A stretch of 35,014 nt of DNA. Origin: Candidatus Eiseniibacteriota bacterium (GTDB lineage: Bacteria; Eisenbacteria; RBG-16-71-46; SZUA-252). Shown piece after piece: positions 8,355-31,830 of this stretch (position 1 is its first letter; every line of letters begins with the position of its first letter). The translations under genes and the position numbers were made by a program. The stretch is from the NCBI GenBank assembly GCA_016880395.1, contig JAEHDN010000033.1:1-35014 (forward strand), given 5' to 3'. The notes under the pieces were generated by a model. The model saw only the letters and a list, made by a program, of their open reading frames with translations. It searched no databases and was not told where the DNA came from.

Positions 8355-9878
8355 TTACGGCAGGATGAGCGAGGCTCCGGTCATCTCCGGCGATGGAGCG
8401 AGGCCTAGGAGCTGAAGGAGGGTGGGCGCGACGTCGGCCAGGATGCCGGACCGCAGGGGGAGTGGAGGGCCGCCGCCGGCGACGATGGGAACGGGATTCA
8501 GCGTGTGGGCCGTGTGGGGACCTCCGGTCGCCTCGTCGATCATCTGCTCGGCGTTCCCGTGGTCGGCCGTGACCAGCGCCACGCCGCCTCTCGCCTCCAC
8601 GGCCTCGAGAACGCGCCCGAGGCACGCGTCCACGGTCTCGACCGCGCGGATGGCCGCGGCCAGGACGCCGGTGTGCCCCACCATGTCGGCGTTCGCGTAG
8701 TTGAGGACGAAAAACCCGTACGGCTCCGAGAGCCGGCGCACCACCTCGTCCGTGACCTCCCGAGCGCTCATCTCGGGCTTCAGGTCGTAGGTCGCCACCT
8801 TCGGCGAGGGGATCAGCGCCCGGTCCTCCCCGGCGAAGGGCGTCTCCTCGCTTCCGTTGAAGAAGTAGGTGACGTGAGCGTACTTCTCCGTCTCCGCGAT
8901 GCGGAGCTGGCGAATCCCCGCCCGGCTCACGACCTCGCCGATCGTGCCTCGGAGCGGCTCGTCCGTGAAGATGACCGGGAAGCGGAAGGTCTCGTCGTAC
9001 TCCGTCATGCAGACGTAGTGGGTCGCGGGCGGCGCGCCGGGCCGAGGAAATCCGTCGAACGCGGGATCCGCCAGGGCGCGGGAGATCTGCCGCATGCGGT
9101 CCGGACGGAAGTTGAACGCGACGACCGTGTCCCCGTCCCGGATCCTTCCATCGTCGCCGCGCACCACGGTGGGCTCGACGAATTCGTCGGACTCGCCGCG
9201 GGCGTAGGCCAGAGCCAGCGCGGCCTCCGGGGAATCGGCTTCGTGGCCCGTGCCCAGGGCGAGCGCGCGGTAGGCCTTCTCGGTCCGCTCCCATCGCTTG
9301 TCGCGGTCCATCGCGTGGTAGCGTCCCGAGATCGTAGCGATCCGGCCGTCCGGCACCTCGGCGAGCACCGATTCCGTCGCACGGATGGAATCGCCCGCGG
9401 AGCGTGGAGGCGTGTCGCGGCCGTCGAGAAACGCCTGCACCCGGATGCGGCGCACGCCCCGTGCCGCCGCCTGGCGGATCATCGCGGCCAGATGCCGCTC
9501 GTGGCTGTGCACGCCGCCCGGCGAGACGAGCCCGACCAGATGGAGCGTGCCCGAAGCGCGCGCTCGCTCGAGCGAGGCCACCCAGACGGGGTTCCACTCC
9601 AGCGATCCGTCGCGAAGCGCCTGATCGATGCGGGTGAGGTCCTGATAGACGATCCTTCCCGCCCCCAGGTTGAGATGTCCCACCTCCGAATTCCCCATCT
9701 GACCCGCCGGCAGCCCGACCGCTTCCCCGCAGGTCGTGAGCGTCGCGCTCGGGCGGCCCGCGAGCAGCGCGTCCATGACGGGCGTGCGCGCGAGCGCCAC
9801 TGCGTTGCCCTCGCGCTCCGGACGGATCCCCCAGCCGTCGAGCACGATGAGGCCGACGAGCCCCTGGCGTCGATTCAT
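8355..9878 (-). CDS. gpmI: 2,3-bisphosphoglycerate-independent phosphoglycerate mutase
   Basis: The protein starts MNRRQGLVGLIVLDGWG and contains MGNSEVGHLNLGAGR, GLVSPGGVHSH and ADHGNAEQM, all iPGM hallmarks. ATG 9876-9878 is used. The track extension to 10064 overlaps the upstream gene. Confidence 0.92.
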   Translation of the reverse strand: MNRRQGLVGLIVLDGWGIRPEREGNAVALARTPVMDALLAGRPSATLTTCGEAVGLPAGQMGNSEVGHLNLGAGRIVYQDLTRIDQALRDGSLEWNPVWVASLERARASGTLHLVGLVSPGGVHSHERHLAAMIRQAAARGVRRIRVQAFLDGRDTPPRSAGDSIRATESVLAEVPDGRIATISGRYHAMDRDKRWERTEKAYRALALGTGHEADSPEAALALAYARGESDEFVEPTVVRGDDGRIRDGDTVVAFNFRPDRMRQISRALADPAFDGFPRPGAPPATHYVCMTEYDETFRFPVIFTDEPLRGTIGEVVSRAGIRQLRIAETEKYAHVTYFFNGSEETPFAGEDRALIPSPKVATYDLKPEMSAREVTDEVVRRLSEPYGFFVLNYANADMVGHTGVLAAAIRAVETVDACLGRVLEAVEARGGVALVTADHGNAEQMIDEATGGPHTAHTLNPVPIVAGGGPPLPLRSGILADVAPTLLQLLGLAPSPEMTGASLILP

Positions 9879-9906
9879 GGGCGGGACGGTACCACAGCCG
9901 CCGAGG

Positions 9907-10383
9907 TCACCGGCGGGCGTCGATCCGGGCGGTCGCCGATGGATGCGACACGGTGGCGCGGAGCCGGAGCGCGATCCCAAGCAGCGCCGCGCTGACGAGG
10001 AGCGGGACCCAGACCGGAAGGATCCAGGCGATCGGCACGAGGAACACCACGTCCAAGTCGCCAAGCCCTCGTGGGAAGCCCGTGAGCCAGCGGAGGAACG
10101 CGTAGTAGAGGATGTCCCACACGCCGAAGATCCATAGCCCCGCCGCGAGCCGTCCCCGCACCGACCTCCCGGCCAGGCAGGCCACGGTGCCGATCATGAC
10201 GAGCGTCGCCACCTCGCGCGCCTGCTCGAGGAGGAGCGGGCCGGCGGGAATCGGCGCGAAGGGGGGCGTCCAGCCGCCTGGGTAGAAGAGCCGCTTCAGG
10301 GTGACCACGCACGCGGCTTCCACGAGCGCCATGGCCGCCGCGTAGACGGTGATCCAGGTCCAGACCGATCGACGAACGATCAA
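9907..10383 (-). CDS. hypothetical integral membrane protein (about 4 TM)
   Basis: 158-aa ORF with a TTG start that overlaps the stop of the ligase gene (TTGA). It has four hydrophobic segments and codon usage typical of the window. No family was recognised. Confidence 0.55.
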   Translation of the reverse strand: MIVRRSVWTWITVYAAAMALVEAACVVTLKRLFYPGGWTPPFAPIPAGPLLLEQAREVATLVMIGTVACLAGRSVRGRLAAGLWIFGVWDILYYAFLRWLTGFPRGLGDLDVVFLVPIAWILPVWVPLLVSAALLGIALRLRATVSHPSATARIDARR

Positions 10384-11180
10384 GCGACCTCCACCTCATG
10401 GGCTGCCCCGTCCTGGACCGGATCCCCCGCCATGCAGGCGGCGAGGGGCGCGGACTCGATTCGGGTGCGGAGTCGAGCGGCGATCGCTTCGACGAGCGCC
10501 CTCCCCAGCTCCGCCCCACCCACCGGGGATCCCAGGATCTCCGGAACCGACCGGGCATGCTCGAGGAGCCGTTCCCGCTCGCCGGGCCTCTCGCCCCGGA
10601 AGCGGGCGATCTCCCGGTGCCGCGGCGAGAGCGGAACCGAAGCATGGCAGAGGGCGGCTCCCCGCGTGAAGCGGGAAGCGATGCCGGCGATCTTGAAGGG
10701 GCCGGAGCGGAGCTCGCCGGGGACGGCGAGCGCGAAGCAGGGTGCGGCCCCGGGGCGAGCTGCCTGGCCCGGCGAAGTCGGCCGCAGGACGAGGTCGGCG
10801 GGCACGCCCAGACCTCGCACCGCCTCGCCCAGAGCCTCGGCCACGAGATTCGCGAATCCGCGCGGGCCCAGATCCCACGGACCCGGAAGGCTCGCGGCGA
10901 GCGCAAAGGTCAGCTCACCATCGTGGAGGACGGCATCGCCACCGGTCGGACGGCGCACGACGTCGAGTCCGGCCCCGCGGATCGCGCCGAGGTCCCAGCC
11001 GGCCGGGAACGGCTCCGCGCGTCCGAGGCTGATCGCGGACGGCTCCCAGTCGTAGGTCCGGAAGACGGCGCGATCGGGGCCGCCCGCGGCCCAGGAGAGG
11101 AGAGCGCAGTCGATCGCCATCTGGAGCGCGCCTCGATCGCGACGGTGAGGGAGCTGGAGGAGCCTGGAGGCGGCGTTCAC
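10380..11180 (-). CDS. lipoate-protein ligase / octanoyltransferase family protein (BPL/LPL catalytic domain)
   Basis: GTG 11178-11180 gives VNAASRLLQLPHRRDRGALQMAIDCALL... The sequence also contains YDWEPSAISLGR, VRRPTGGDAVLHD and FKIAGIASRF (the lysine motif of LplA/LipB-type enzymes). The 475-aa track ORF fuses it to an out-of-frame read of the upstream gene. Confidence 0.7.
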   Translation of the reverse strand: MNAASRLLQLPHRRDRGALQMAIDCALLSWAAGGPDRAVFRTYDWEPSAISLGRAEPFPAGWDLGAIRGAGLDVVRRPTGGDAVLHDGELTFALAASLPGPWDLGPRGFANLVAEALGEAVRGLGVPADLVLRPTSPGQAARPGAAPCFALAVPGELRSGPFKIAGIASRFTRGAALCHASVPLSPRHREIARFRGERPGERERLLEHARSVPEILGSPVGGAELGRALVEAIAARLRTRIESAPLAACMAGDPVQDGAAHEVEVA

Positions 11181-11188
11181 GGCCCGCG

Positions 11189-11839
11189 TCAGAAGCGGAG
11201 GGCGCCCAACCAGTCGTCGAGCAGGAACATCACGCGGCCGATCAGGAGCGAGACGCGCGCCATGACGGTGTATCCGTACGACGCTCCGAAGCTGACCATG
11301 AGGAAGTAGATCCCGAGCCGAGCCGTTCCGCCCATCGCGCCTTTGTGCTCCTTCGAGAAGAAGAAGAAGATCAGCGTGCAGAGGAGCCCGACCACGAGCA
11401 GCAGGTTGCCGATCGTGGTGCCGAGATGCCCCGGGACCCAGAGCGGGAGGATCGTGCCGTGGATCTGCTCCACGAAGTCCCCCTGGCCGAATCCCGTGAT
11501 GCGGAGCGCCGGATAGACGCCGAGGACGAACGCGATCGGCCATCGGGAGAGCCAGTCCCCGCGCGGGAAGAATCGCGAGAAGAGCATGATGCCGAGCACG
11601 AGCGGAATGATCAGGAGGTAGTGCCGATCGCTCGCGAAGGACGTGAAGAGCGGGTGGATGAGGTTCGGGTAGACCGAGGACATCATCGTCAGCACGACGT
11701 AGTAACCGGCCGACACCCCCACGAACAGGTGCTCGCAGAACTTGTAAACCGGATTGTCCTTGTAGAGGAAGCTGAAGATGCCGAGCGTGAGGAGCGCGGC
11801 GATCCACACGCCGATGTCGTGGCTCGGATGGAAGCTCAC
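11189..11839 (-). CDS. polytopic membrane protein, unknown family (membrane module subunit D)
   Basis: GTG 11837-11839 overlaps the stop of the upstream gene (GTGA). The 216-aa product, VSFHPSHDIGVWIAALLTLGIFSF...FLLDDWLGALRF, has about 6 hydrophobic helices. The rest of the 500-aa track ORF is an alternative-frame artefact. Confidence 0.65.
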   Translation of the reverse strand: MSFHPSHDIGVWIAALLTLGIFSFLYKDNPVYKFCEHLFVGVSAGYYVVLTMMSSVYPNLIHPLFTSFASDRHYLLIIPLVLGIMLFSRFFPRGDWLSRWPIAFVLGVYPALRITGFGQGDFVEQIHGTILPLWVPGHLGTTIGNLLLVVGLLCTLIFFFFSKEHKGAMGGTARLGIYFLMVSFGASYGYTVMARVSLLIGRVMFLLDDWLGALRF

Positions 11840-12672
11840 GACGTCCCCTTTCCCTTGCCCTTGCCCTTCGGCAGGAAGGCCAGGTTGCCGAGCACGATCA
11901 TGAAGGCGATGAACGCGTGCGCCAGCGACTGCGCGTCCATGCCCCGGGTGGCGAGGGCGGGTGCGCCCACGAGCACTTCGTACTCGGCCGCGCCCGCCAT
12001 GCCGCCGAGCAGCCCGTGGAGCTGGCCCGCCTGGAGATACGGGTAGTACTCGGGTGCGCTCACGGCCGTCACACCGGCGACCATGGGAAGGTGGAACCGC
12101 GACACCACCTGCTGCACCCACTCCTTCGTCCCCGGATATCCGGCGCTGATGTTCACGAGGAGCCGGATCTGCTGGAAATTCTGGATGCCCTTCATGATCG
12201 GAATCTGCCCGACCGGGACCCCGCGGTTGTCCACGGGGAAGGTCTTCGGAATGCTCTGCCCCATTTGCGACATCACGAGCTCGTTCCCGACCTTGTAGCC
12301 CAGGTTCACGTAATCCACGCTCTCGCGCTTGTGGTACTCGCGCGCCGCGATGCGGAGGACCTGGTCGGTGAGCGGCGGGCCCGCGGGATAGAGCGCCATG
12401 GCGATGATCTTCATGTTCCGTCGCATGAGCTGCCGCGCCGCCGCGAGGTGCATCGGATAGTTCTCCGCCGCCGTGCCGGGATCGTAGTCCCCCGCCAGGA
12501 GGACGACCGATCCCTCGGGGATCTTCTCGATGGCGTCGTAGAAGCCGCGCGCCCGGTTGCTCGGCTGGACCGGCGCGATGTGGAAGTTGAACAGGAGCGG
12601 CAGGATCACGAGGAGCGCCACCGCGAGGAAGATCCAGCGCCGGTCGAGCCGGCGGAGCGAATCCGGGCTCAT
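11836..12672 (-). CDS. bitopic protein with N- and C-terminal TM helices flanking a ~210-aa soluble domain, unknown family (subunit C)
   Basis: ATG 12670-12672 overlaps the stop of the upstream gene (ATGA). The product starts MSPDSLRRLDRRWIFLAVALLVILPLLF, has a C-terminal TM (LAHAFIAFMIVLGNLAFL) and ends in a KGKGKGKG tail. Confidence 0.65.
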   Translation of the reverse strand: MSPDSLRRLDRRWIFLAVALLVILPLLFNFHIAPVQPSNRARGFYDAIEKIPEGSVVLLAGDYDPGTAAENYPMHLAAARQLMRRNMKIIAMALYPAGPPLTDQVLRIAAREYHKRESVDYVNLGYKVGNELVMSQMGQSIPKTFPVDNRGVPVGQIPIMKGIQNFQQIRLLVNISAGYPGTKEWVQQVVSRFHLPMVAGVTAVSAPEYYPYLQAGQLHGLLGGMAGAAEYEVLVGAPALATRGMDAQSLAHAFIAFMIVLGNLAFLPKGKGKGKGTS

Positions 12673-13304
12673 GCCCCGTCCCCTCCGCCATAGGTCTTCT
12701 CGAGTCCCAGGATCACGCGGATGCCCGTGGCCATGACGCCGAGTGCGGCCCCGATCAGGATCCCGCGCTTGGCCGCGTTCTGCGGGATCTCCATCAGCCA
12801 GTCCGCGGCCGCTGGAATCGCCGGGTGGATCGCGGCCCCGAGCGGCACCCGTCCCAGCATCAGGATGAATGCGGCGATGGCGAGGAGCATCGCTTCGACG
12901 GATCGGATCCGGAACGCCCGGAAGGCAGCGGACGCGATGAAGAAGGCGAGGAGCGAGAACATGGTTGCGGTCATGGGCGAGTAGAAGGTGCCGTAGATCC
13001 ACTGGAAGCGCGAGTCCACGTCCGTGTAGTGCGTCCATTCCGAGAAGCCGACGGCCATCGTGACGAGGAGTCCCGCGATCAAAACGAGCTTGAAGGGCCA
13101 GTCGCGCTCGCGCCGCGAGACCTGGCGCAAGTTGATGCGCAGCAGGTTGGCCACCCCCAGCACGTACGTGCACCCGACCACGACGATCGCCCAGTTCTGC
13201 ATGTCCTCGTAGAGGTTCCGCACCTGGGGATGGGGCACGAAGAAGGCGATCAGCATGAAGAGGCCCGCCACCAGCGTGATGACGATCGGGATCTCGCGCT
13301 TCAC
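12669..13304 (-). CDS. polytopic membrane protein, unknown family (subunit B)
   Basis: 211-aa ORF starting MKREIPIVITLVAGLFMLIAFFV, with about 6 hydrophobic helices. It lies 10 nt downstream of subunit A. Confidence 0.65.
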   Translation of the reverse strand: MKREIPIVITLVAGLFMLIAFFVPHPQVRNLYEDMQNWAIVVVGCTYVLGVANLLRINLRQVSRRERDWPFKLVLIAGLLVTMAVGFSEWTHYTDVDSRFQWIYGTFYSPMTATMFSLLAFFIASAAFRAFRIRSVEAMLLAIAAFILMLGRVPLGAAIHPAIPAAADWLMEIPQNAAKRGILIGAALGVMATGIRVILGLEKTYGGGDGA

Positions 13305-13314
13305 GCGTGCGTCC

Positions 13315-14172
13315 TCACTGGGTGGCGAAGAAGTCGCCGAGCCACGTGTGGCCGAAGGTGGCCAGCAGACAGCCCAGCACGATGACGATGATCATGAGGA
13401 CCTTGACCATGTCGGAGGCCTTGAGGCTACCGAGGAGGCGCGGGTCATTGGAGAGGAGCGCGCTCGCCGCGAAGTACTCCTCGCCGATCAGCGTGTAGTC
13501 GCAGGCCACCACGAAGAAGGGCATCTGGTGGACGTTCGCGGTGCCTGCGATCTGGATCGCCCCGACCGCGTGCCCCGTCTCCGCGAGGAGGAGCGACTCG
13601 GCAAAGAAGGCGCCCAGGAGCAGGTTCGCCGCGGGCCTCTCGCGCAGCATCATCCCGTTCACCGCCGCCACGTACGCGAACTGCTCCGAGGTGACGTAGC
13701 GGACCTGGTCGCTCCGGTACGCGTCCCGGCGCCCGACGTCCGAGTAGGCGGACTTCACCACCTCCTCGGCCACGGTGTACACGCCGGGCGAGTTCGTGGG
13801 GACGTTGAGCGCGGTCTCGTACTTGGCGGCGACCCGCGCCACCCGGCCGAGCAGGATCATGCTCGCGATGGTCTGGATGTCGTCGATGTCCTGGACCCCG
13901 GGCACGTAGAGGACGCCCTTCCCCATCTCCGTCGCGCGTCCCACCGCCTCCTCGATCGCGTCGAGGCCGGGGATCTTCCGGAAGACCCACCGGGCGCCCC
14001 GCTCCGCGAGGCGGATGTAGCCGAAGAGCAGCGCGAAGAAGATCCCCGTCACGATGAGGACGTTGAGCTTGCTCCAGTCGAAGAAGTTCGCGGCCGCGCG
14101 CGCCGGACGCGATACGTCGGAGTCGAGCGCGGCATCGGCCGGGGATGCGACGAGCTGGTACTCGTAGGTCAC
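13315..14172 (-). CDS. membrane-anchored protein, unknown family (subunit A); probably extends upstream to about 14484 with a signal peptide and Fn3-like domain
   Basis: The track ORF starts at GTG 14170-14172. It has a TM (LNVLIVTGIFFALLFGYIRLA), a ~215-aa soluble region and a C-terminal TM (VLMIIVIVLGCLLATF). The same frame stays open to 14610 and encodes a signal-peptide-like segment and an Fn3-like domain without any ATG/GTG/TTG (see findings). Confidence 0.65.
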   Translation of the reverse strand: MTYEYQLVASPADAALDSDVSRPARAAANFFDWSKLNVLIVTGIFFALLFGYIRLAERGARWVFRKIPGLDAIEEAVGRATEMGKGVLYVPGVQDIDDIQTIASMILLGRVARVAAKYETALNVPTNSPGVYTVAEEVVKSAYSDVGRRDAYRSDQVRYVTSEQFAYVAAVNGMMLRERPAANLLLGAFFAESLLLAETGHAVGAIQIAGTANVHQMPFFVVACDYTLIGEEYFAASALLSNDPRLLGSLKASDMVKVLMIIVIVLGCLLATFGHTWLGDFFATQ

Positions 14173-14584
14173 CCCCGCCTGCGCGTTGTCGTCCTCGAAG
14201 CGCGCGGCGGTCCCCTCGACGGTCGCGATCGGAGCGAAGGTTCCGCCCTGCTCCCGCCGGACGACGAGCCAGGCGTGCGGTGGGACGGCGGGCGGATTCC
14301 AGGCCAGGGTGACGCTGCCGCCCGCGTCGTTGGGCGTGTCCTGGGCGCCGAGCGGAAACGTCTGCGCGTCGCGCGGCAGCGCGAGGGCCGGAACCGCGGC
14401 GACGAGGAACAGGAGCGCCGCGAGCCGCCAGGAGGGCGCGCGTGAGGATGGGAGCGTGGTCCGCGGGTCGCGGAGATTCGTCAGGAGGAGGCTCCCTGGC
14501 TGGGACGGGACGCTCCAACTCTGCCGCGATCGGATCTCAGCACGTGGTGCGCTTCCTCCCAGGTATCGGCCGGAAAACCGCTCA

Positions 14585-14614
14585 ACGGTAGGCTCTTCCC
14601 GCCGGCGGTGTCAA
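14585..14614 (-). promoter_or_regulatory. candidate sigma70-type promoter for the membrane module
   Basis: The minus strand reads TTGACA (14609-14614), an 18-nt spacer, then TACCGT (14585-14590). It lies in the ~140-nt spacer after the stop of the 375-aa gene. Confidence 0.3.
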
Positions 14615-14628
14615 GCATCGTGCAGTCG

Positions 14629-15756
14629 TCAGGACTCGATCATCTCCACGTTGGCCCGGGGAAGGATGCTCTTCGACCCATTGCCGAAGTCCACCTCGAG
14701 CACGCGAACCTTGGCCTCCGTCTCGAGCGCCATGAGCTCCGGCGGAAGGGCGACCACCTTGCCCAGGCGACCGAAGAAGGGCTCCCGGATGACCCGGATG
14801 ACGCTCCCGAGCTCGAGGCCGGCGTGACCCCCGCCGTCCCCGTCCGCGCCCGCGCCGGGGGCCACCGCCTGAGGCACGACGATCTCGGGCCGGAGGACGC
14901 CGGCGCGGATCTGGGTCGCCCCGCTGACCGAGGCCTTCTTCCCCTCACACTGCTTCAGGAGCTCGAACGTCCGGCCGGCCATCGGGATCTCCCCGAAGCC
15001 CTCGGTCACGACGAGCGTGATCCCCTTCTCCTCGGATCCCGTGATCGCGACGCCGAGGTCGTAGCCCAGGAACTCCCGGAGGTCGTGATCGTCGAACCCT
15101 CCGACGACGACCGCCCGCGCCCCGCGCTGGATGGCGTAGCGCAGGACCTTCGTGCTGACGTGCGAGCCGCCCACGAGGATCTTGCCGCGCACCTCCTCGC
15201 CGATTCTCGCCTCGGTGAGGACGTCGCCGGGTCCGTCCACGCAGATGTGGAGGCTACCGACCGTCTCACCGCCGATGCCAAAGATCCCCTGGATGAAGCT
15301 GCCGCGCGTCTCGACCGTCACGCCCTGCCCTTCGTGGACCTCGACGACGGTGCCGTCCACGTAGGCGTCCACCTCGACCGGGATGGGAGGCTCGCGGAGG
15401 ATGGCCTGCCCCGTCACGGTGGAGATGATCTCGAGCGTGCTGTCGACCGGCGCCGTGCACCGGGACTTGAAGAGACCGAAGAAGGAGCGGCTCTCGGCGA
15501 ACGCCTCCCCCTTCTTCAGGTGTGATCCAATTGGCTTGATGAGGCAATCCGGAACGTCCTCGGGAAGCACCCCAAGGATGTTCGCCGCGTTCACCGTCTG
15601 CACGTTGCCCGGCAGCTCGGTGCGGGCCACCACGGTCTCGGCTTCGACCGTCTGGCCGACCGTCACGAGCACGGTTCCGGCGAGGGGGAGCTTCCGCTCC
15701 CGGCGGACCACGGTGAAGCGGGCGACCTTGAGTCCGGGCGTGTACGAGTGGGCCAT
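14629..15756 (-). CDS. hypothetical cytoplasmic protein with N-terminal barrel-sandwich (lipoyl-like hybrid) motifs and a KOW-like C-terminus
   Basis: 375 aa, with GAGGAG upstream of the ATG. The sequence contains GTVLVTVGQTVEAETVVART and a KOW-like C-terminal GSVIRVIREPFFGRLGKVVAL. No signal peptide or TM was seen, and the family was not recognised with confidence. Confidence 0.65.
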   Translation of the reverse strand: MAHSYTPGLKVARFTVVRRERKLPLAGTVLVTVGQTVEAETVVARTELPGNVQTVNAANILGVLPEDVPDCLIKPIGSHLKKGEAFAESRSFFGLFKSRCTAPVDSTLEIISTVTGQAILREPPIPVEVDAYVDGTVVEVHEGQGVTVETRGSFIQGIFGIGGETVGSLHICVDGPGDVLTEARIGEEVRGKILVGGSHVSTKVLRYAIQRGARAVVVGGFDDHDLREFLGYDLGVAITGSEEKGITLVVTEGFGEIPMAGRTFELLKQCEGKKASVSGATQIRAGVLRPEIVVPQAVAPGAGADGDGGGHAGLELGSVIRVIREPFFGRLGKVVALPPELMALETEAKVRVLEVDFGNGSKSILPRANVEMIES

Positions 15757-15759
15757 GGC

Positions 15760-17580
15760 TCAGCTCCTCACCGCGACCGGGTAGATGTCGAGCGCCTCGT
15801 TCCACTCGGCCAGCTTGGCGATCCGCTGGGTTCGATCCGCGGGGAGCACGAAGGGTTGGCGGCCACGGGCGTCGAGGATCACCCCGACGATCCCACCGCG
15901 GAGGGTCACCGAGCGCTCCTTCCCCTTGCCGGCCCCGACGTCGAGGCCACGGTCGGGGCGGAGCACGGCGTTCACCGTCTGCCCGTCGGGAACGGGGATC
16001 AGCTTCAGCTGGCCGAAGGGAACCGACACCTCCTCCTTCCGACCGTCCGCGTACTCGAGCGCTGCCCGGAGCGCCACCGTCCCCTCCTTGCACGGCCCCA
16101 CCGGTGCGACGCTCGACCCGAGCCGGATCAGGCAATCCTTCTCGAAGACGTGTTTCGCGGCCTCCGGGTGTACGGTCGAGAGGACGCCGAGCTGGGGCAT
16201 CATGAAGATGGAGTCGACCGCCAGCTCCGTCACGTGCTCGGGCAGGAACGCGTCGAGCATCATGAGGGCGGACTGGGCGCGGCGCGGCGCATGCGACAGC
16301 ACGCCGCCGCTCCCCACGAGCAGGTCGAGATGGTCGAGCCGCACGAGCGAGGCGCCACTCCCGGTCTGCTCGAACGTGTCGGAAATCGTCCGCTCCTGCT
16401 GCACGCCCTTCAGCCCCACGGCGAGCATCTTGTGCTGGTCGAACGCGAGCCGGAGCGCTTCCCGCGCGATCGCCTGCTCGATCACCAGCTCGTCCAGGGT
16501 CTGCGGGATCGTCGTCGGGCGGATCATCTTGTTCTTGATCCGGTTCCTGAGATCCGGCTCGCTGATCTCGAAGGGGACCCACCGGAGGATGTTCGGCAGC
16601 CCAGCCTCGGCGAGAACGTTCGAGACGCTGTAGGACATCCCGAGGTTCGCGCTCACGGTGCGGTTGAAGACGCCCTGGAAGACGGAGAAGACGTCCGTGG
16701 TCGCGCCGCCGATGTCCACGCCGAGGACGTTGATCTTCTCGTCCCTGGCGATCGTCTCCATGATGAGGCCGACCGCGCCGGGCGTCGGCATGATGGGGAC
16801 CGGCGACCAGGTCATGAGCTTCTTGTACCCGGGCGCGTGCGCCATGACGTGCTCCATGAAGAGGTCGTGGATCTTGTCGCGCGCCGGCGTGAGGTTCTCG
16901 CGCTCGAGCACGGGCCGGAGGTTGTCCGTCACCACGAGCGCCGTCTTCGAGGCCAGCCGCTCCTCGACGATCGACCGGGCGTCCTTGTTCCCCGCGTAGA
17001 TCACGGGCAGCTCGTAGCCGGCGCCGAGGCGCGCCTTCGGATCCGCCGCCGCCAGCAGCTCCGCCATCTCGGCGACGTGCGAGGTCGTGCCGCCGTCGAT
17101 CCCTCCCGAGAGGAGGATCATGTCGGGCCGGAGCTGGCGGATCCGCTTGATCTTCTCGTGCGGGAGCCGTCCGTCGTTGCTCGCGATGACGTCCATCACG
17201 ATCGCCCCCGCGCCGAGCGCCGCGCGCTGCGCGCTCTCGCCCGTCATGCTCTTCACGACGCCGGAGACCATCATCTGGAGCCCGCCCCCCGCGCTCGATG
17301 TCGAGATGTAGAGATCGACCCCCTCGTTCCCCTTCTGGGGCGTGAGTATCCGCTCACCATCGAGCAGCTTCCGACCCGCCAGCTCCTCGACCTCCATGAT
17401 GGCGTTGAGCACCCCGCGGGTGACGTCCTCGAAGGGAGCCTCGACCGTGGTGGGCGCCTCGCCGCGCACGATGAGGCGATACTCGCCGCCTCGGCGCTCG
17501 ATCAGGATCGCCTTGGTGGTCGTGCTGCCGCAGTCGGTCGCGAGAATCGAGTTCAGCTCGTCGGGCTTCGGAAGGGTCAC
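15760..17580 (-). CDS. GlmL/MutL-like ASKHA-fold ATPase (glutamate mutase L family-like)
   Basis: 606 aa. It has two actin/HSP70-type phosphate motifs, ILATDCGSTTTKAIL and VLGVDIGGATTDVFSV, plus LLSGGIDGG. The layout resembles GlmL/MutL-type accessory proteins. The start GTG overlaps the upstream stop (GTGA). Confidence 0.65.
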   Translation of the reverse strand: MTLPKPDELNSILATDCGSTTTKAILIERRGGEYRLIVRGEAPTTVEAPFEDVTRGVLNAIMEVEELAGRKLLDGERILTPQKGNEGVDLYISTSSAGGGLQMMVSGVVKSMTGESAQRAALGAGAIVMDVIASNDGRLPHEKIKRIRQLRPDMILLSGGIDGGTTSHVAEMAELLAAADPKARLGAGYELPVIYAGNKDARSIVEERLASKTALVVTDNLRPVLERENLTPARDKIHDLFMEHVMAHAPGYKKLMTWSPVPIMPTPGAVGLIMETIARDEKINVLGVDIGGATTDVFSVFQGVFNRTVSANLGMSYSVSNVLAEAGLPNILRWVPFEISEPDLRNRIKNKMIRPTTIPQTLDELVIEQAIAREALRLAFDQHKMLAVGLKGVQQERTISDTFEQTGSGASLVRLDHLDLLVGSGGVLSHAPRRAQSALMMLDAFLPEHVTELAVDSIFMMPQLGVLSTVHPEAAKHVFEKDCLIRLGSSVAPVGPCKEGTVALRAALEYADGRKEEVSVPFGQLKLIPVPDGQTVNAVLRPDRGLDVGAGKGKERSVTLRGGIVGVILDARGRQPFVLPADRTQRIAKLAEWNEALDIYPVAVRS

Positions 17581-17870
17581 GAGGATTCCTTTCGTCGGTT
17601 CCGCTCGGCGTCGCGCTCCGCGCGGCGTCGCGCCTTGTCTGCCCGCTCCTCGGCGCGCGTCGCCTCGTCCCGCGCCTCGATCTTCACGAGGAGCGTCTCG
17701 AGGGTGTCGCGCCGCTCCACGAGGGCGGCGAATCGTTCGTAGTCCGGAACCGAGACGAAGGCCCGGACCATCGGTTCGAAAAAGTAGAGCGCCTGGCTCC
17801 CCACGAACGAAAGGGGTTTGACGCTCTCGAGCGTCAGGATCGCGGGCACCGTCATGCGGAGCGCGACCAC
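17577..17870 (-). CDS. small hypothetical protein with a hydrophobic N-half and a highly charged helical tail
   Basis: 97 aa. The N-half reads ..PAILTLESVKPLSFVGSQALYFFEPMV.. and the tail reads EARDEATRAEERADKARRRAERDAERNRRKE. It is coupled to the ATPase gene by a GTGA overlap. The start is uncertain because the frame is open further upstream without a canonical start. Confidence 0.5.
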   Translation of the reverse strand: MVALRMTVPAILTLESVKPLSFVGSQALYFFEPMVRAFVSVPDYERFAALVERRDTLETLLVKIEARDEATRAEERADKARRRAERDAERNRRKESS

Positions 17871-17976: not shown

Positions 17977-18432
17977 TCAGGACGCGGCGGCGCCGGACTT
18001 GAGGCGCGCTTCCACGAACGCCACCACTTGATCGCGATTTCCTCCGAACAGGAGCCGGACGCCGCGGTAGGCCTCCAGCCAGCTCCGCCGCTCGAACGGG
18101 CTCAGGAATACGCCCGTCCGGTCCACCGTCATACGCCGCATCTCCGTCCAGGGACGGACGCGGGCCACGCCCAGCGACCGCACCTCGACCGCGTCCTCGG
18201 TCAGCCGGTAGGCGGTGGGAAAGAGAAAGGACGAGAGTGAAGCCAACACGAACAGCGGCGTCGCCACTCCGAGGACGGCATCCTGGGTCCCTCGCGCCAC
18301 GAGCACGCCCAGGACCACGGCCGAGCCGACCAGCACCGCCGCCGCGAGCGGACGCTCGCGGGCCGGCCACGCGGTCCAGCTGAGCGCGCCCCCCGGTGGC
18401 GCCGGGCGGCGCCCGCGATCAGCCTCCGGCAC
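17977..18432 (-). CDS. 2-TM membrane protein with a possible bacterial PH-like (bPH) C-terminal domain
   Basis: 151 aa, with a GTG start overlapping the last codons of gcvPB. It has two hydrophobic helices, then YRLTEDAVEVRSLGVARVRPWTEMRRMTVDRTGVFLSPF, which resembles YdbS/YdbT-type bPH domains. The domain call is tentative. Confidence 0.5.
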   Translation of the reverse strand: MPEADRGRRPAPPGGALSWTAWPARERPLAAAVLVGSAVVLGVLVARGTQDAVLGVATPLFVLASLSSFLFPTAYRLTEDAVEVRSLGVARVRPWTEMRRMTVDRTGVFLSPFERRSWLEAYRGVRLLFGGNRDQVVAFVEARLKSGAAAS

Positions 18433-19888: not shown

Positions 19889-21261
19889 GCGGCCTCCTCC
19901 CGGGGTCTCCCCGCGTGGGCCTTGGCCCACGAGGCGAGCGTGTCGACGTAGCGGTCGAGGTCCTCCCGGCTTCGCTTCTCCGTGACCGCGACGAGCAGGT
20001 GGTTCGGGCGCGTCCGATCGAACCGACCGAGCGGGATGCCCGCGAGGATGCGGCGGTCCAGCGCGGCCCTCGCGAAGGACTCGGCCGGCGCCGGGAGTCG
20101 GAGCACGAGCTCGCGGAAGAAGGGTGCCTCCGCGTGCGCGAGCCGCACGCCGGGGATCTCCCCGATCCGGTCCGCGAGATAGTGCGCCCGCTCCAGGCAC
20201 TGGGTCGCCACGTCGCGGAGTCCCTGCGCCCCGAGGAGTGCGAGGTAGACCGTGTTGGCGAGCGCCATGAGCCCCTGGTTCGTGCAGATGTTGGAGGTCG
20301 CGCGCTCGCGGCGGATGTGCTGCTCGCGGGTCTGGAGGGTGAGCACGTAGCCGCGCTTCCCGTCGAGATCCACGGTCACGCCGGCGAGGCGGCCCGGAAG
20401 GCGGCGCACCTCGGCCTTGCGAATGGCGAAGAAACCGACCAGCGGTCCGCCGTAGCTCATCGGAACGCCGAGCGGCTGCCCCTCTCCGAAGACAACGTCC
20501 GCGCCGTCATGGCCCGGGGGGCGCAGGATCGCGAGCGCCACCGGATCGGCGGCCGCCAGCGAGTAGGCCCCGATCTCGTGGGCGGCCTGCGTCAGCGCGG
20601 CCCCGTCCTCCACCACGCCCTCGAAGTTGGGCTGCGCCCAGATCACGGCGGCGACGTCGTTCCCGGCCGAGGCGATCGGCCCGATCGCGGTGCGGCCGGC
20701 CTCGAGCGGGATCTCCTCGAGCCGGAAACCACCCGCCGACGCGTACGTGCGGAGCACCTCGCGCGTGTGCGGGTGGACGCCGGTCGAGCAGAGTACGCGA
20801 GGGCGCCCCTTTGCGCCTGCCGCGAAGACGGCCGCCTCGACCGCGGCGGTCGCGCCGTCGTAGAGCGAGGCGTTCGCGACCTCCATGCCGGTCAGCTCGC
20901 GGATCATCGACTGGTACTCGAAGATCACCTGCAGCGTGCCCTGCGCGACCTCGGGCTGATAGGGTGTGTAGGCGGTGGCGAACTCGGATCGTGAGACGAT
21001 GGAGCGGAGCGCGGCGGGGATGAAGTGGTCGTAGATGCCGCCGCCCAGGAAGCAGGCGTACCGGCTCGCATCGGCGTTTCGTTCGGCCCACAGCTCGAAG
21101 CGCCGCGCGATCTCGTACTCGGCGAGTGGCGCGGGGAGCGGGAGGGGTCCGGACAAGCGGAACTCCGATGGGATCGAGGCCCAGAGATCCTCTTCCCGCG
21201 GGACGCCGATCCGCTCGAGCATGGCCCGGCGCTCGGCGTCGCTGCGGCCGACGAAGCTCAC
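19876..21261 (-). CDS. gcvPA: glycine dehydrogenase (decarboxylating) subunit 1
   Basis: GTG 21259-21261 overlaps the gcvH stop (GTGA) and gives VSFVGRSDAERRAMLERIGV... The sequence also contains TAYTPYQPEVAQGTLQ, which is typical of GcvPA. Confidence 0.92.
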   Translation of the reverse strand: MSFVGRSDAERRAMLERIGVPREEDLWASIPSEFRLSGPLPLPAPLAEYEIARRFELWAERNADASRYACFLGGGIYDHFIPAALRSIVSRSEFATAYTPYQPEVAQGTLQVIFEYQSMIRELTGMEVANASLYDGATAAVEAAVFAAGAKGRPRVLCSTGVHPHTREVLRTYASAGGFRLEEIPLEAGRTAIGPIASAGNDVAAVIWAQPNFEGVVEDGAALTQAAHEIGAYSLAAADPVALAILRPPGHDGADVVFGEGQPLGVPMSYGGPLVGFFAIRKAEVRRLPGRLAGVTVDLDGKRGYVLTLQTREQHIRRERATSNICTNQGLMALANTVYLALLGAQGLRDVATQCLERAHYLADRIGEIPGVRLAHAEAPFFRELVLRLPAPAESFARAALDRRILAGIPLGRFDRTRPNHLLVAVTEKRSREDLDRYVDTLASWAKAHAGRPREEAACRS

Positions 21262-21644
21262 GCGTGAGCCCCCAGGCTCTTCTCGTAGTCGTCGGCGGAG
21301 AGGAGCGCGTTCACCTCGGCCGGGGACTCGAGGCGGATGCGCACCATCCACCCGTCCTTGTAGGGGGACCGGTTCACGAGCGCCGGATCGTCCTTCAGCG
21401 CGCCGTTGACGGCGACGATCTCGCCCGTGACCGGAGCGAAGAGGTCGCTCACCGTCTTCACGGCGTCGATCGTGCCAAAGGCCTTCATCTGGGCGACGCG
21501 GGTGCCGGGCGCCGGGAGCTCCACGAAGATCACGTCGCCCAGCTCACCCTGCGCGTAGTCGGTCACCCCGACCACGGCTTCCCCGCCCTCGACCTTGATC
21601 CACTCGTGCTCCTTGGTGTAGCGCAGCTCGCGCGGCACGTTCAT
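21258..21644 (-). CDS. gcvH: glycine cleavage system protein H
   Basis: 128 aa starting MNVPRELRYTKEHEWIKVEG. The lipoyl-lysine motif is IDAVKTVSDLFAPVTGEI. An ATGA overlap joins it to gcvT. Confidence 0.95.
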   Translation of the reverse strand: MNVPRELRYTKEHEWIKVEGGEAVVGVTDYAQGELGDVIFVELPAPGTRVAQMKAFGTIDAVKTVSDLFAPVTGEIVAVNGALKDDPALVNRSPYKDGWMVRIRLESPAEVNALLSADDYEKSLGAHA

Positions 21645-22774
21645 TCGGGCCTCCTCGGTTTCGGCGATCGCACGGATCCTTCGCGGTACATCGGGCGCGC
21701 GGTGACCTTCGCGGGCACGGCGTGGCCGCGCGTGACGACCTCCACCCGCTCGCCGGGTGCGGACACCTCGCGCGCGAGATAGGCCATGCCGATCGGCCGT
21801 CCCATCGAGATCCCCATCGAGCCGCTCGTGACCCGTCCCACGGACTGCCCGCCGCGCGTCACGTCGGCACCGGCTCGCGCGATCTTGTCCTCTTCGAGGA
21901 CGAACCCCTGGAGGCGGCGGGAGACGCCGACTTCCTTGGCGCGGCGGAGCGACTCGGCCCCGATGAACTCCTTCTTGTCCCAGCGGACCGTCCAGCCGAG
22001 CCCCGCCTCGACCGGGTTCGTGGTCTCGTCGATGTCGTTCCCGTAGAGGCAGTAGCCCATCTCGAGCCGCAGCGTGTCGCGCGCGCCGAGCCCGATCGGG
22101 CGGATGCCTTCGGGGGCGCCCGCCTCGAACACGCGGTCCCACAGCTCGAGCGCCCGAGGCGCTCGGACGTAGATCTCGAATCCGTCCTCGCCGGTGTAGC
22201 CGGTGCGCGAGACCAGCGTCCAGTCGTCGCCGCTCCCGATCTCGAACCCTTCGTAGAACCCGAGCGCGCGCACCCGGTCGCCGTAGAGGCGCGCGACCAC
22301 GTCCTCGGCGCGGGGCCCCTGCACCGCGAGCTGGGCGGTCTCCGCGTTCTCATCGACCACGGTCACGTCCGGGGGCGCGTGCTCCCGCACCCAGGCGAGG
22401 TCCTTGTCGAAGTTGGCGGCGTTCACGACCAGGAGACGATCGGCGCCGAGGCCGTAGACGAGGAGGTCGTCGATGATCCCGCCGCTCTCGAGGCACATCG
22501 GCGTGTAGACGACCTTTCCGATCGGCATGTCTCCCGCCTCGTTCGTGACGAGGCGGTTGGCGAGCGCGATCGCGCCGCGGCCCGTGAGCCGGATCTCTCC
22601 CATGTGGGACACGTCGAAGACGCCGACGCCGGCCCGGACGGCCTTGTGCTCGGCCATGATGCCCTCGTACTGGATCGGCATCTCGTGGCCGGCAAAGGGG
22701 ACCATCTTGGCTCCGAGAGCCACGTGGCGGGGATGGAACGGGGTGCGTTTCAGCGCGGAGGCGGTTTCGAGCAT
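21641..22774 (-). CDS. gcvT: glycine cleavage system aminomethyltransferase T
   Basis: 377 aa starting LKRTPFHPRHVALGAKMVPFAGHEMPIQY and containing VFDVSHMGE. AAGGAAAGAGG lies upstream of the ATG. Confidence 0.95.
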   Translation of the reverse strand: MLETASALKRTPFHPRHVALGAKMVPFAGHEMPIQYEGIMAEHKAVRAGVGVFDVSHMGEIRLTGRGAIALANRLVTNEAGDMPIGKVVYTPMCLESGGIIDDLLVYGLGADRLLVVNAANFDKDLAWVREHAPPDVTVVDENAETAQLAVQGPRAEDVVARLYGDRVRALGFYEGFEIGSGDDWTLVSRTGYTGEDGFEIYVRAPRALELWDRVFEAGAPEGIRPIGLGARDTLRLEMGYCLYGNDIDETTNPVEAGLGWTVRWDKKEFIGAESLRRAKEVGVSRRLQGFVLEEDKIARAGADVTRGGQSVGRVTSGSMGISMGRPIGMAYLAREVSAPGERVEVVTRGHAVPAKVTARPMYREGSVRSPKPRRPE

Positions 22775-25739: not shown

Positions 25740-26966
25740 TCATTCGTACCGGAGGGAGTCCACCGGGTCGAGGCGCGCCGCTTTCACGGCGGGGTACATC
25801 CCGAAGAAGAGCCCGATCGACGTGGCGGACCCGAACGCGAGCAGGATGCCCCAGATCGGCACCGCGAACGTCAGCGGCGTCACGAGGTCGATCACCTTGC
25901 CCGCTCCGAGGCCCGCGAGGACGCCGATGATCCCGCCCACACCGGTGAGGGTCATGGCCTCCACGAGGAACTGCCAGAGGATGTCCCGCTCCCGGGCGCC
26001 GAGCGCCTTGCGGACGCCGATCTCGCGCGTCCGCTCGGTCACCGAGACCAGCATGATGTTCATCACGCCGATCCCGCCGACCATGAGGCCGATGGACGAG
26101 ATGACCACCATCACCAGGTAGAAGGCACCGGTGATCTGCCCGTAGAGATCGACCAGGGACTTGTCGGTGAAGACGGCGAAGTTGTCCCCCTGGTCGTACC
26201 GGACCCGGCGCTGGCGGCGGAGCACATCCGCGATCTGCTCGCGCGCCACGTCGATCAGCTCCGGCGACGCGGGCTTCGCGTTCAGTACCATGGGCAGATT
26301 CGGCCCGAAGAGCTTCTCCAGGGTGGTGTAGGGGACGAGCACGATCTCGTCCATGCTCATCCCGAGGAAATGGCCGCGGGGCTCCGCCTGGCCGATCACG
26401 GTGAAGGGCTGACCGCCGATCGTGATCGTCTTCCCCACGGGGTTGACGTGCGGGAAGAGCGTCTCCACGTGGTCCATGCCGAGCACGCACACCGCCGAGC
26501 GGTGCTCCACCTCCGCCTCCGTGAACCCGCGTCCGTTGTCCACGGCGTAGTTGTTCGTCACCATGTAGTCGGGCGAGGTGCCGATGACGAAGTTCGGGCG
26601 GGTCTGGATCTCCCCGTACCGGAGCCGGAGCTCCGCGAAGTTGAGCGGGGCGACCGCGAGCACCGCCGGGGCCGCGCGGCGGATCGCCTCCGCGTCCTCC
26701 GGCTCGAACCCCTTCCGCCGGCGGAGGCTGTCGGGCATCTCGCCCACCCAGGCCCCGGGGGCGAACGGGCGGATGTAGAGGACGTCGGTCCCGAGGGACG
26801 CGAGCTGCGCCTTCATGCTCTGGTTCAGCCCCTCGATGATCGAGATCATGGCCATGATGGCCGTGATCCCGATGATCACGCCGAGCACGGTCAGGAAGGA
26901 GCGGAGCTTGTTCTCCCGGAGCGCCTGGAACGCGATGGTGACGCCTTCGCGGACGGGGATGGCCAT
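25740..26966 (-). CDS. ABC transporter permease, MacB/FtsX type (permease 2)
   Basis: 408 aa. It has an N-terminal TM, a large periplasmic domain and a C-terminal FtsX 3-TM bundle with [15 protein letters not shown]. It is paralogous to the adjacent permease. Confidence 0.85.
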
Positions 26967-26969
26967 CGG

Positions 26970-28223
26970 CTACTCGTGCCGCAGCGCGACGATCGGATCG
27001 AGCCGCGCCGCGCGCGTGGCGGGATAGACGCCGAAGAAGAGTCCAACCGCCGAGGCCACGCCCAGGCTGATGGCGACCGACCAGGGCTGGATGGTCGCCG
27101 GCAGCGGGGTGATCGTGCGGATCAGGAGCGCGATCGCGACGCCCGCCACGACCCCGAGCGCGCCGCCGAAGAGAGCCAGCACGACCGCCTCGCTCAGGAA
27201 CTGCGACACGAGGTCCGACCGGCGCGCCCCCACCGCCTTGCGGATGCCGATCTCACGGGTCCGCTCGGTGACCGCCACCAGCATGATGTTCATGATCACG
27301 ATGCCCCCGACCACGAGCGAGATCGCGACGAGGCCGATCGTTCCCGCGAAGATCCCTCCGGTCAGGGTCTGGTACAGGGCGAGGTAGGTTTCGGCGGTGG
27401 AGATCGCGAAGTCGTCCGGAGCGCCGAGCGGAACGTGGCGCGCCGATCGAAGCACCACCCTGGCCTCGTCCTCGAGCCGGTCCAGCGTCACGCCGGAGGC
27501 CGCGCTCACGATCAGGGTGAGCGATCGATGGCCGCCGTACATCTTCTGGAACTGTCCGAGCGGCACGACCACGAGGTTGTCCTGGCTCTGGCCGAGCACG
27601 TTCCCGCGGGCCGCGAGCGTGCCAACCACGAGCAGCTCGTAGCCCGACACCTTGATCGACTGGCCGATGGGGTCGAGCCGCGGGAAGAGCGCCTCCGCCA
27701 CCTCGGATCCGATCACGCAGACCGGCCGCCGGCGGTCGAAGTCCATCTCCTCGAGCTCGCGCCCCTGATCGGTCTCGTACTTCCCGACCGATGGGTAACC
27801 CTCGGTGGTCCCCAGGATGCGAACGTTCTTGAGCTCCGTGCCCCGGTGGCGGACCGATTTGTTGGCCTCCGCCTGCGCCACCACCCGGTCCGCGAGGCGC
27901 ATGCGGGACGCCAGGGCATCCGCCTCGAAGGCCGTCAGGTCCCGGCGACGGGATGCTTCCCGGAACGCATCGTCGTCGGTGATGAGGCCGAACTTGTCGA
28001 TGTAGATGACGCCCAGACCCTGGTCCAGGATCCGCTCGGAGACGTACTTGTTGACCCCGTCGATGATCGAGACGACGGCGATCACCGACATGACCGCGAC
28101 GACGTTGCCGATCACGGTCAGCACGGTGCGGAGCTTGTGGGCGCGGAGCGCCCCGACCGCGATGGAGAGGTTTTCCGCCAGCGCGACCAGGGCGTCGCGT
28201 CGGGGCCGGCGGACCGCGGTCAC
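26970..28223 (-). CDS. ABC transporter permease, MacB/FtsX type (permease 1)
   Basis: 417 aa with the same architecture as permease 2, including [15 protein letters not shown]. Its start overlaps the ATPase gene stop by 4 nt. Confidence 0.85.
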
Positions 28224-28948
28224 GGGTTCGGCGGCGCGGCGGGCTGGACGGAGCGGTCGCTCTCGATCTTGCCGTCCCGGAGCCGGATGATCCGGCGGGC
28301 CCGCGCGGCCACGTCCTCCTCGTGGGTGACCAGGATGACCGTGTTCCCCTTCGCGTGGATCTCATCCATGAGGGTGAGGATCTCGATCCCGGTGCGCGAG
28401 TCGAGGTTCCCGGTGGGCTCGTCCGCGAGGACGAGCGAGGGGTTGTTGACGAGCGCCCGCGCGATCGCGACGCGCTGGCGCTGGCCGCCGGAGAGCTCGT
28501 TGGGGCGATGGTGCGTGCGATCGCCGAGGCCCACCATCGCCAGCATCTCCTTGGCGCGCTCGCGGCGCTCCGCGGATGGCTTGCCCGAGTAGATGAGGGG
28601 CAGCTCGACGTTGTGAAGGGCGTCGGCGCGGGGGAGCAGATTGAAGGTCTGGAAGACGAACCCGATCTCCTGGTTCCGGATCCGCGCCAGCTCGTCGTCG
28701 TCCCGCTCCCGGATCTCCGTTCCCCGGAGCTTGTACGATCCGCTCGTCGGCGTGTCGAGACAGCCGACGATGTTCATCAGCGTCGACTTGCCCGACCCGG
28801 ACGGCCCCATGACGGCGACGTACTCCCCGACGTGGATCCGGAGCGTGACCCCGTCCAGGGCGTTCACCTCGGTCGTGCCCATCTCGTAGATCTTGCGCAC
28901 ATCGGTGATATCGATGAGAACGCCGTGCTCGGCGCCATTCGCGCTCAC
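28220..28948 (-). CDS. ABC transporter ATP-binding protein (MacB/LolD-type)
   Basis: 242 aa with Walker [10 protein letters not shown], signature [15 protein letters not shown] and Walker [13 protein letters not shown]. Confidence 0.92.
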
Positions 28949-30234: not shown

Positions 30235-30259
30235 TCCTCGCGTCTCCTTCGCCCGAGGG

Positions 30260-31732: not shown

Positions 31733-31830
31733 CCCGTTCTCCCTAGAATGCGGTTCGAGGCGGAGGGCAGTTGGGCCCTTGACCCTATACATACGCCGGT
31801 CGGAAGCCGTTGGTTTCCCGCCGGTTCGCG

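Follow-up and report, generated by a model that had tools for sequence, protein, structure and literature searches.

A conserved four-gene DUF6754 module that probably encodes an inner-membrane complex of an uncharacterized kind

Two described groups lie closest to the system considered here. The Pfam entry for the domain of unknown function DUF6754 (PF20539) covers one of its proteins and is silent on the other three, on tandem arrays and on function, and the Rnf and Na+-NQR complexes resemble it in architecture only. A search of a library of papers for DUF6754, for PF13941 (the Pfam family of a neighboring NTPase) and for this gene cluster returned nothing. We studied the system in a 35,014-nt stretch of DNA, hereafter the window, from a Candidatus Eiseniibacteriota bacterium of soil or sediment (contig JAEHDN010000033.1 of assembly GCA_016880395.1). 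There, four adjacent minus-strand genes, A to D, encode membrane proteins, of which A is a DUF6754 member and B, C and D fall outside known families. Because of their conserved order and adjacency, translational coupling, module-wise duplication and strong sequence constraint, we propose that the four proteins are probably subunits of one hetero-oligomeric inner-membrane complex of an uncharacterized kind, termed the ‘DUF6754 system’, a reading to which we assign a probability of about 85%.

Conservation of the four-gene module

The window is ~70% GC, and analysis of GC content at third codon positions (GC3) placed nearly all of its real genes on the minus strand. Gene A (13315-14484; 389 aa if the CTG at 14484 is the start), gene B (12669-13304; 211 aa), gene C (11836-12672; 278 aa) and gene D (11189-11839; 216 aa), all on that strand, have GC3 values of 0.92-0.96 and are therefore read as coding. 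An earlier reading made from the letters alone (the sequence-only reading) had picked out the same four open reading frames (ORFs) as a four-subunit membrane module, and the junction sequences bear out the linkage that it described: the TGA of A is followed by 10 nt with a GAGGA Shine-Dalgarno motif and then by the GTG of B, the stop of B and the start of C overlap as ATGA, and the stop of C and the start of D overlap as GTGA. Identical spacing from A to D was present in the gene calls of another genome. The four genes are translationally coupled. The conserved unit is larger than 11189-14484, running upstream to 18432. It thereby takes in four conserved genes beyond those of the sequence-only reading, encoding the proteins H151, G97, F606 (an ASKHA NTPase) and E375; tandem copies of the module likewise widen the picture.

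To survey the module, we took 80 A-centered genome loci and queried the ORFs in them with the proteins of the window. Under a strict adjacency filter, these loci contained 87 sets in strict A-B-C-D order, an arrangement far beyond chance. The window itself has the four genes on one strand, adjacent and in A-B-C-D order, as defines a DUF6754 four-gene module. Individually, A was found in 78 of the 80 loci, B, directly following A, in 74, C in 72 and D in 67, with absences of B, C or D mostly at contig ends. The module proposed from the sequence thus recurs in about ten phyla, most of them uncultivated, with its gene order unchanged and its genes tightly spaced even where A identity between phyla is only 40-50%. 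Hosts comprised Candidatus Eisenbacteria (the lineage of the window), Zixibacteria, WOR-3, Fermentibacteria/Aegiribacteria, Stahlbacteria, Latescibacteria, Ignavibacteria, Poribacteria and Coatesbacteria. Four metagenome-assembled genomes (L005, L006, L065 and L079) carry the labels Dormiibacterota, Bacteroidota, Gemmatimonas or Acidoferrum despite Eisenbacteria- or Latescibacteria-type synteny; these are probably binning or labeling errors in public records. A belongs to a large family: in a database clustered at 90%, 7,803 of the 8,000 candidates scored passed E ≤ 1e-5, 2,607 clusters at 50% identity passed E ≤ 1e-3 (a total of at least 2,600), and at least 597 stretches in species-representative genomes matched A.

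Many genomes carry two or three divergent modules in tandem. Three tandem modules were present in eight loci (L013, L024, L026, L045, L051, L059, L062 and L075), with the full arrangement F606-E375-ABCD-ABCD-ABCD in L013, L026 and L051. Tandem copies are ~50% identical to each other and 70-88% identical to their positional orthologues in other genomes, which points to ancient duplication of entire modules, as opposed to individual genes, and to their retention as units. On comparative grounds, this module-wise duplication argues strongly that the four proteins function together. Constraint on the remaining subunits is also marked: B, C and D show mean column identities of 40-47% with many invariant polar residues, in alignments where, apart from one close relative at 86-90%, identity to the window protein is 37-59%. 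Stand-alone ABCD modules exist as well, for example, in Poribacteria and WOR-3 loci, and no conserved neighbors beyond ABCD were found for them.

High-GC DNA yields many spurious ORFs, and the four frames might in principle be such artifacts or unrelated membrane protein genes adjacent by chance. We consider the probability of this negligible. The GC3 values, the thousands of A and C homologues, the order and adjacency kept across phyla and the confident structural models described below already refute it.

Subunit architecture and a candidate ligand path

Subunit A matched PF20539 with 372.6 bits (E = 1e-111; gathering threshold, 27 bits) over model positions 2-256 of 257, corresponding to residues 131-385, and is thus a DUF6754 member with near-full-length coverage. 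Its start codon needs comment. Position 14484 is a CTG with GGGAG in front, and the frame contains no ATG, GTG or TTG between an upstream stop near 14610 and a GTG at 14172, which explains why the public gene call for A is a 285-aa fragment (P0007). Homologues 64-82% identical align across the signal peptide and fibronectin type III (Fn3) domain, starting just before the hydrophobic segment, so both parts belong to the protein. In a closely related strain from rhizosphere metagenomes, the 5′ region of A has substitutions and no indels. On these grounds, CTG 14484 is a reasonable, if unproven, candidate for a noncanonical start. In a near relative (P0001), the annotated A start lies farther upstream, at a site that reads TTT in the window.

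From the N terminus, A comprises a signal-peptide-like hydrophobic segment (residues 16-40, ...AVPALA|LP; 14365-14439), supported by hydropathy, a model helix at 18-34 and the signal peptides of homologues; a periplasmic Fn3 domain (residues ~45-115; 14140-14352); a first transmembrane (TM) helix running out to in (residues 137-161; 14002-14076), called from hydropathy, the model and a flank rich in Lys and Arg after the helix; a cytoplasmic, six-stranded Rossmann-like α/β domain (residues 172-345; 13450-13971), assigned from model secondary structure; and a second TM helix (residues 348-376; 13357-13443), called from hydropathy and the model. The AlphaFold2 (AF2) model had a mean predicted local distance difference test (pLDDT) score of 82.7 and a predicted template modeling (pTM) score of 0.70. 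In it, the Fn3 domain is a seven-strand β-sandwich (residues 46-113), which Foldseek matched to Fn3 domains with E values of 1e-4 to 1e-6 and which agrees with the source names of homologues (‘fibronectin type III domain-containing protein’). The strongly basic flank following TM1 places the α/β domain in the cytoplasm and Fn3 in the periplasm. The Pfam model covers both TM helices and the Rossmann-like domain between them, the latter being the most conserved part of the system, with the motifs GRATEMGK, AESLxLAETG, IQIAGTA, QxPFF and ACDYTLIGEE. In proteins ranging from 282 to 1272 aa, the DUF6754 part always lies at the C terminus, preceded by Fn3 repeats, a PQQ_2/BamB-like β-propeller or nothing recognized, and the third A copy in the arrays of L013, L024, L026 and L051 (267-303 aa) lacks an ectodomain altogether. 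The periplasmic ectodomain of A is therefore an exchangeable module. Fn3 domains swamped the Foldseek search with the A model and were the only matches listed with E < 1e-3, leaving the DUF6754 domain without a strong structural neighbor in that listing, and the A family profile matched no chain sequence in the Protein Data Bank (PDB).

Subunit C is built as a mirror image of A. It consists of a basic N terminus with a DRR motif, a TM helix (residues 11-27), an α/β domain (residues ~38-239; 11956-12561), a second TM helix (residues 240-265) and a basic C-terminal tail, PKGKGKGKGTS (11839-11874). Because both the N terminus and the tail are basic, the α/β domain is assigned to the periplasm, an assignment made together with the alignment and the AF2 model (pLDDT 91.6, pTM 0.85), in which the domain is six-stranded and spans residues ~39-235. 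The KGKGKGKG tail pointed out in the sequence-only reading is present in the window; only close relatives share the repeat, and what the family as a whole retains is no more than a tail rich in Lys and Arg. Invariant positions in the domain are D62, E70, D120, W185, T202, Q217 and E230-Y231-E232, with D148 near-invariant. We detected 2876 homologues of C; those with names are all ‘hypothetical protein’, and none carries a Pfam domain. C itself had no Pfam or NCBIfam match at E ≤ 0.1, and its family profile had no sequence match in the PDB. Taken together, A exposes a variable periplasmic domain (Fn3 here) and a very conserved cytoplasmic Rossmann-like domain joined by a two-helix TM hairpin, C presents the reverse arrangement, and conserved Rossmann-like domains thus stand on both faces of the membrane.

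Subunits B and D are small polytopic proteins. B has six hydrophobic segments, both in its own hydropathy and in the family average, and basic regions at its Lys- and Arg-rich N terminus and in loops 2-3 and 4-5. D has four strong and two weaker hydrophobic segments, making ~6 TM helices plausible, and its basic loops are 1-2, 3-4 and 5-6. From these charge distributions, B is predicted to be N-in/C-in, whereas D seems to be N-out and opposite to B, as judged from charge bias alone. The topologies of all four proteins thus agree with those first described from the sequence, on the basis of hydropathy and, for A and C, the AF2 models. Like C, neither B nor D matched Pfam or NCBIfam at E ≤ 0.1; their family profiles had no meaningful match among all PDB chain sequences, and no cysteine occupies an invariant or near-invariant column of either alignment. 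The glycine-rich C-terminal helices of B and D had prompted the suggestion that the two are distant paralogues forming a pseudo-symmetric core. We rejected this paralogy: BLASTP gave E = 0.13, and hhalign probabilities were 0.6% for whole proteins (alignments of ~100 sequences) and at most 12.5% for half-versus-half comparisons, leaving a core symmetry derived from it unsupported. Homology between the soluble domains of A and C was also rejected; the order of motifs looks similar by eye, but hhalign scored the pair no better than reversed-sequence controls.

What the complex does can be addressed only tentatively, and a translocation or hand-over device for a small ligand is the possibility we favor. 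B and D would form a membrane core of ~16 helices including the A and C hairpins, the Rossmann-like domains of A and C would bind the same kind of small ligand on either face, and the ligand would pass through the B/D core, with the ectodomain of A serving as an exchangeable docking module. Such a device could transport its ligand or could act as an enzyme or flippase embedded in the membrane. Two features suggest it. First, post-strand positions in Rossmann-like folds usually form the ligand crevice, and invariant Gly-rich loops, together with acidic or polar residues, immediately follow β-strands in the secondary structure of both models: G196, G291, E296, S297, G314, T315 and E335/E336 in A, with invariance computed over 28 sequences of 39-53% identity, and D62, G125, G178, T202, G223/G224 and E230/E232 plus the near-invariant D64 and S176 in C. 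Second, B and D, being small, polytopic and by prediction oppositely oriented, could together make up a conduit.

Foldseek matches of the C model lend themselves to another interpretation. These were halves of GT-B glycosyltransferases (OtsA, VldE and GT4), short-chain dehydrogenases/reductases and G-protein-coupled receptor fusion constructs, the last of which presumably carry an inserted glycogen-synthase domain, on which the match descriptions are silent. As the best matches are Rossmann halves of such enzymes and conserved acidic residues sit at strand ends of C (invariant D62 and near-invariant D64 after β1, as well as E230/E232), the system might be a membrane-anchored enzyme that works on substrates of the envelope or linked to lipids (by glycan or phosphate transfer, for instance), with catalytic Rossmann-like domains on either face and B and D as flippase or scaffold. 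We think this quite unlikely: the matches are weak and generically Rossmann-like (TM-score 0.24-0.35, root-mean-square deviation 10-17 Å, identity 9-14%), no glycosyltransferase, HAD or phosphatase family was matched by sequence, and the periplasm lacks nucleotide-activated donors.

Operon context of the module

In the window, gcvT (21641-22774), gcvH (21258-21644, with a lipoyl-lysine motif), gcvPA, gcvPB, H151, G97, F606, E375 and A to D form a run on the minus strand with tiny gaps, continuing after D with an lplA-like gene, a gene for a 158-aa membrane protein and iPGM. H151 (17977-18432), with two TM segments, has a start overlapping the gcvPB end, and the stop of the small protein gene G97 (17577-17870) overlaps the F606 start by 4 nt. 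F606 (15760-17580) encodes a GlmL/MutL-family NTPase that matched PF13941 at E = 9.5e-128 over residues 12-483; its ASKHA phosphate and adenosine motifs, as read from the sequence, are intact. It differs from GlmL by a 120-aa C-terminal extension and by scores below NCBIfam cutoffs (228.5 versus 475 bits for the GlmL equivalog; 158.7 versus 204 for the GlmL family TIGR01319), and no B12-dependent mutase is encoded in the window. F606 therefore belongs to the broader Pfam MutL family only. Our literature search found nothing linking GlmL to a membrane or to glycine cleavage, or the host phyla to conserved clusters.

E375 (14629-15756) is cytoplasmic and combines an RnfC_N/NqrA_N-type barrel-sandwich hybrid, a middle α/β region and a KOW-like C terminus that is also seen in its homologues. 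The protein itself matched no family, but close homologues exceeded Pfam cutoffs for RnfC_N (33 bits versus 25.6) and also for NQRA_N. Searching all PDB sequences with the E375 and F606 profiles gave nothing meaningful. The idea that E375 is a lipoylated or biotinylated target of the lplA product was dropped, as the barrel-sandwich hairpin has no invariant lysine and its candidate position is an Arg in the window. In four loci (L108, L117, L155 and L158), E375 homologues stand alone; judged from N-terminal sequences, the genes after them look like one for a ~295-aa signal-peptide protein, next an accA-like gene and, in all but one of these loci, an era-like gene. E375 thus appears to be a widespread housekeeping-type protein outside assigned families.

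The lplA-like gene (10380-11180, minus strand), of the lipoate/biotin ligase family (Pfam LplA-B_cat, 1.5e-15), starts 9 nt after the D stop; it follows D in ~19 loci, precedes H151 in two and is probably operon context outside the complex. It is overlapped by 4 nt by the gene for the 158-aa membrane protein (the pair spans 9907-11180), a protein with about three hydrophobic segments and no family that was detected in only eight loci, mostly Eisenbacteria. The listed iPGM ORF (8355-10064; 569 aa, TTG start) is overextended at its 5′ end and overlaps this membrane protein gene; its homologue in L001 has 508 aa. Scans to delimit the operon found no Rfam riboswitch match and no promoter- or terminator-like sites above shuffled expectation. 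An anti-phage defense role was rejected because PADLOC had no match for A-D, E375, F606 or G97, the H151 match (E = 0.0087) being at chance level. Elsewhere in the window, two neighboring genes at 226-2729 (products of 419 and 415 aa) are paralogues of the GlgC/GlmU-like type that combine NTP_transferase with hexapeptide domains. At 25740-31834 lies a complete efflux system of the MacB type, made up of a pair of MacB_PCD/FtsX permeases with an ABC ATPase, an adaptor of the HlyD family and an outer-membrane factor (OEP), with the MacB-type genes proper at 25740-28948; it is unrelated to ABCD and marks the organism as diderm.

Across genomes, H151-G97-F606-E375 lies directly before ABCD in ~32 of the 80 A-centered loci (~40%), and ABCD directly follows E375 in 23-24 of 80 E375-centered metagenome loci. 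The gcvTHP genes are immediately upstream of H151-G97-F606-E375 in at least 17 genome loci, which come from several phyla, as well as in 15 of the 80 metagenome loci, gcv genes being detected in 16. The organization is one of three nested layers: gcv/lplA, followed by H151-G97-F606-E375 and then by ABCD in one to three copies. The window module is probably cotranscribed with F606, E375 and the two small proteins inside the gcvTHP-to-lplA run. As an observation in its own right, H151-G97-F606-E375 is a conserved, unannotated gene set following gcvT-H-PA-PB in many lineages, which suggests an unrecognized accessory function of the glycine cleavage system.

This context bears on function in several ways. 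Uptake systems are common in catabolic and cofactor operons, and the position of the module in such an operon is in line with transport. F606, E375 and the small proteins may regulate or energize ABCD while remaining separable units. A bolder reading is a new class of membrane machine, ‘quaternary inverted’, in which A inside and C outside, together with N-in B and N-out D, would face opposite sides of the membrane and so could alternate, or relay a ligand or a conformational signal, between cytoplasm and periplasm, the window subtype being powered or gated by F606 and E375 and wired into the glycine cleavage/lipoylation operon. We hold this reading to be improbable, and we know of no precedent for coupling a GlmL-type ASKHA NTPase to a membrane complex.

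Several observations count against the ligand hand-over device and its energization. ASKHA/E375 genes without ABCD and ABCD without ASKHA/E375 both occur, and in some loci E375, with or without F606, stands beside unrelated genes; given this mutual separability, energy coupling through F606/E375 is not established. Linkage to gcv follows primarily the H151-G97-F606-E375 layer and not ABCD, as illustrated by one locus (L143) with gcvP-G97-F606-E375 and no ABCD. Foldseek gave no specific analogue for the Rossmann-like domain of A or C from which a substrate could be named. Lastly, within the membrane-spanning parts of B and D, conserved polar residues are few and conserved acidic ones absent, a scarcity that is unusual for an ion-coupled transporter.

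The same scarcity would suit a machine in which nothing crosses the membrane. As a trans-envelope mechanotransducer or cell-envelope machine, F606 and E375 would drive the DUF6754 domain and the TM hairpins, and the conformational change would be transmitted to C and A on the periplasmic side, with Fn3 or β-propeller modules of A contacting peptidoglycan or outer-membrane partners, following the logic of FtsEX, MacB, Tol and MreBCD. The variable and sometimes very long periplasmic scaffolds of A (Fn3 repeats or a BamB-like propeller, in proteins up to 1272 aa), the frequent adjacency of F606/E375, the apparently diderm nature of all host phyla and the OEP, HlyD and MacB genes of the window fit this picture. 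It is nevertheless unlikely in our estimate, as many ABCD modules lack an ectodomain on A (the third tandem copies), many have no F606/E375 nearby and no homology to known mechanotransmission systems was found.

The complex is widespread, strongly conserved and often multicopy, with three of four subunits outside described families and a DUF protein as the fourth. Its carriers are concentrated in FCB-related candidate phyla (Eisenbacteria, Zixibacteria, WOR-3, Fermentibacteria, Latescibacteria, Poribacteria and Ignavibacteria), lineages that abound in soil and sediment and for the most part have not been cultured. Knowing its function would close a gap in the picture of transport or processing across the inner membrane of these cells, and it might bring to light a new means by which an ASKHA NTPase is coupled to a membrane complex. 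The recurrent placement between gcvTHP and lplA offers a physiological handle through glycine catabolism and lipoylation.

Comparison with characterized membrane systems

The closest architectural parallel is with Rnf and Na+-NQR. Both pair two ~210-aa, six-TM subunits, predicted to be oppositely oriented, with a bitopic subunit whose α/β domain is periplasmic, and the adjoining E375 family carries an RnfC_N/NQRA_N domain. Accordingly, one could equate B and D with RnfA/E (NqrE/D), C with RnfG/NqrC and E375 with NqrA or the RnfC N terminus, giving a redox- or ion-translocating complex that possibly ties the lipoyl/NAD redox chemistry of glycine cleavage to the membrane; the position of the cluster between gcvTHP and lplA in many lineages would agree. 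The parallels are striking, but all defining features that could be tested failed. B and D had no PF02508 match in Pfam at E ≤ 0.1, no match to NqrD/E or RnfA/E chains in the PDB and no conserved Cys ligands for an intramembrane Fe-S center, and they are not paralogues. C had no FMN_bind match and no flavinylated (S/T)GA(T/S) motif of the SGAT type, and its conserved strand-end motif is GxTAVSAP. The cluster encodes no NADH- or ferredoxin-binding subunit and none binding NAD, FAD or Fe-S, and A has no counterpart in Rnf or Nqr. An Rnf/Nqr-like complex is therefore highly improbable.

The proposed DUF6754 complex also shares general features with other machineries. Like MacB, FtsEX, LolCDE (type VII ABC systems), MreBCD and PilMNO, it has membrane subunits with sizeable periplasmic domains beside an NTPase gene. 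Here, however, the NTPase is a GlmL/hydantoinase-type ASKHA protein and not an ABC ATPase or actin-like filament former, its gene is absent from many ABCD loci and A-D contain no FtsX, MacB_PCD, MreC/D or PilN/O domains. Within the window, ABC_tran, FtsX and MacB_PCD are absent from A-D and the four upstream genes and present only in the unrelated cluster at 25740-28948. TRAP, TTT and Mrp systems likewise combine small polytopic subunits with subunits bearing soluble domains, and the sequence-only reading had named a match to such a known transporter family as something that would overturn it; no Pfam or NCBIfam match to DctQ/DctM, TctA/B/C or MrpA-G was obtained at E ≤ 0.1, so that the reading is not overturned on this ground. 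At the sequence level, TRAP, TTT, Mrp, ABC, Rnf/Nqr and MotA/ExbB-type families are thus excluded. The structural searches proposed at the outset pointed the same way, yielding Fn3 for A and generic Rossmann folds for C. With one DUF protein, three family-less subunits and modeled A and C without close structural neighbors, the module stands outside every characterized kind of membrane system tested, and it is new in the sense of being uncharacterized.

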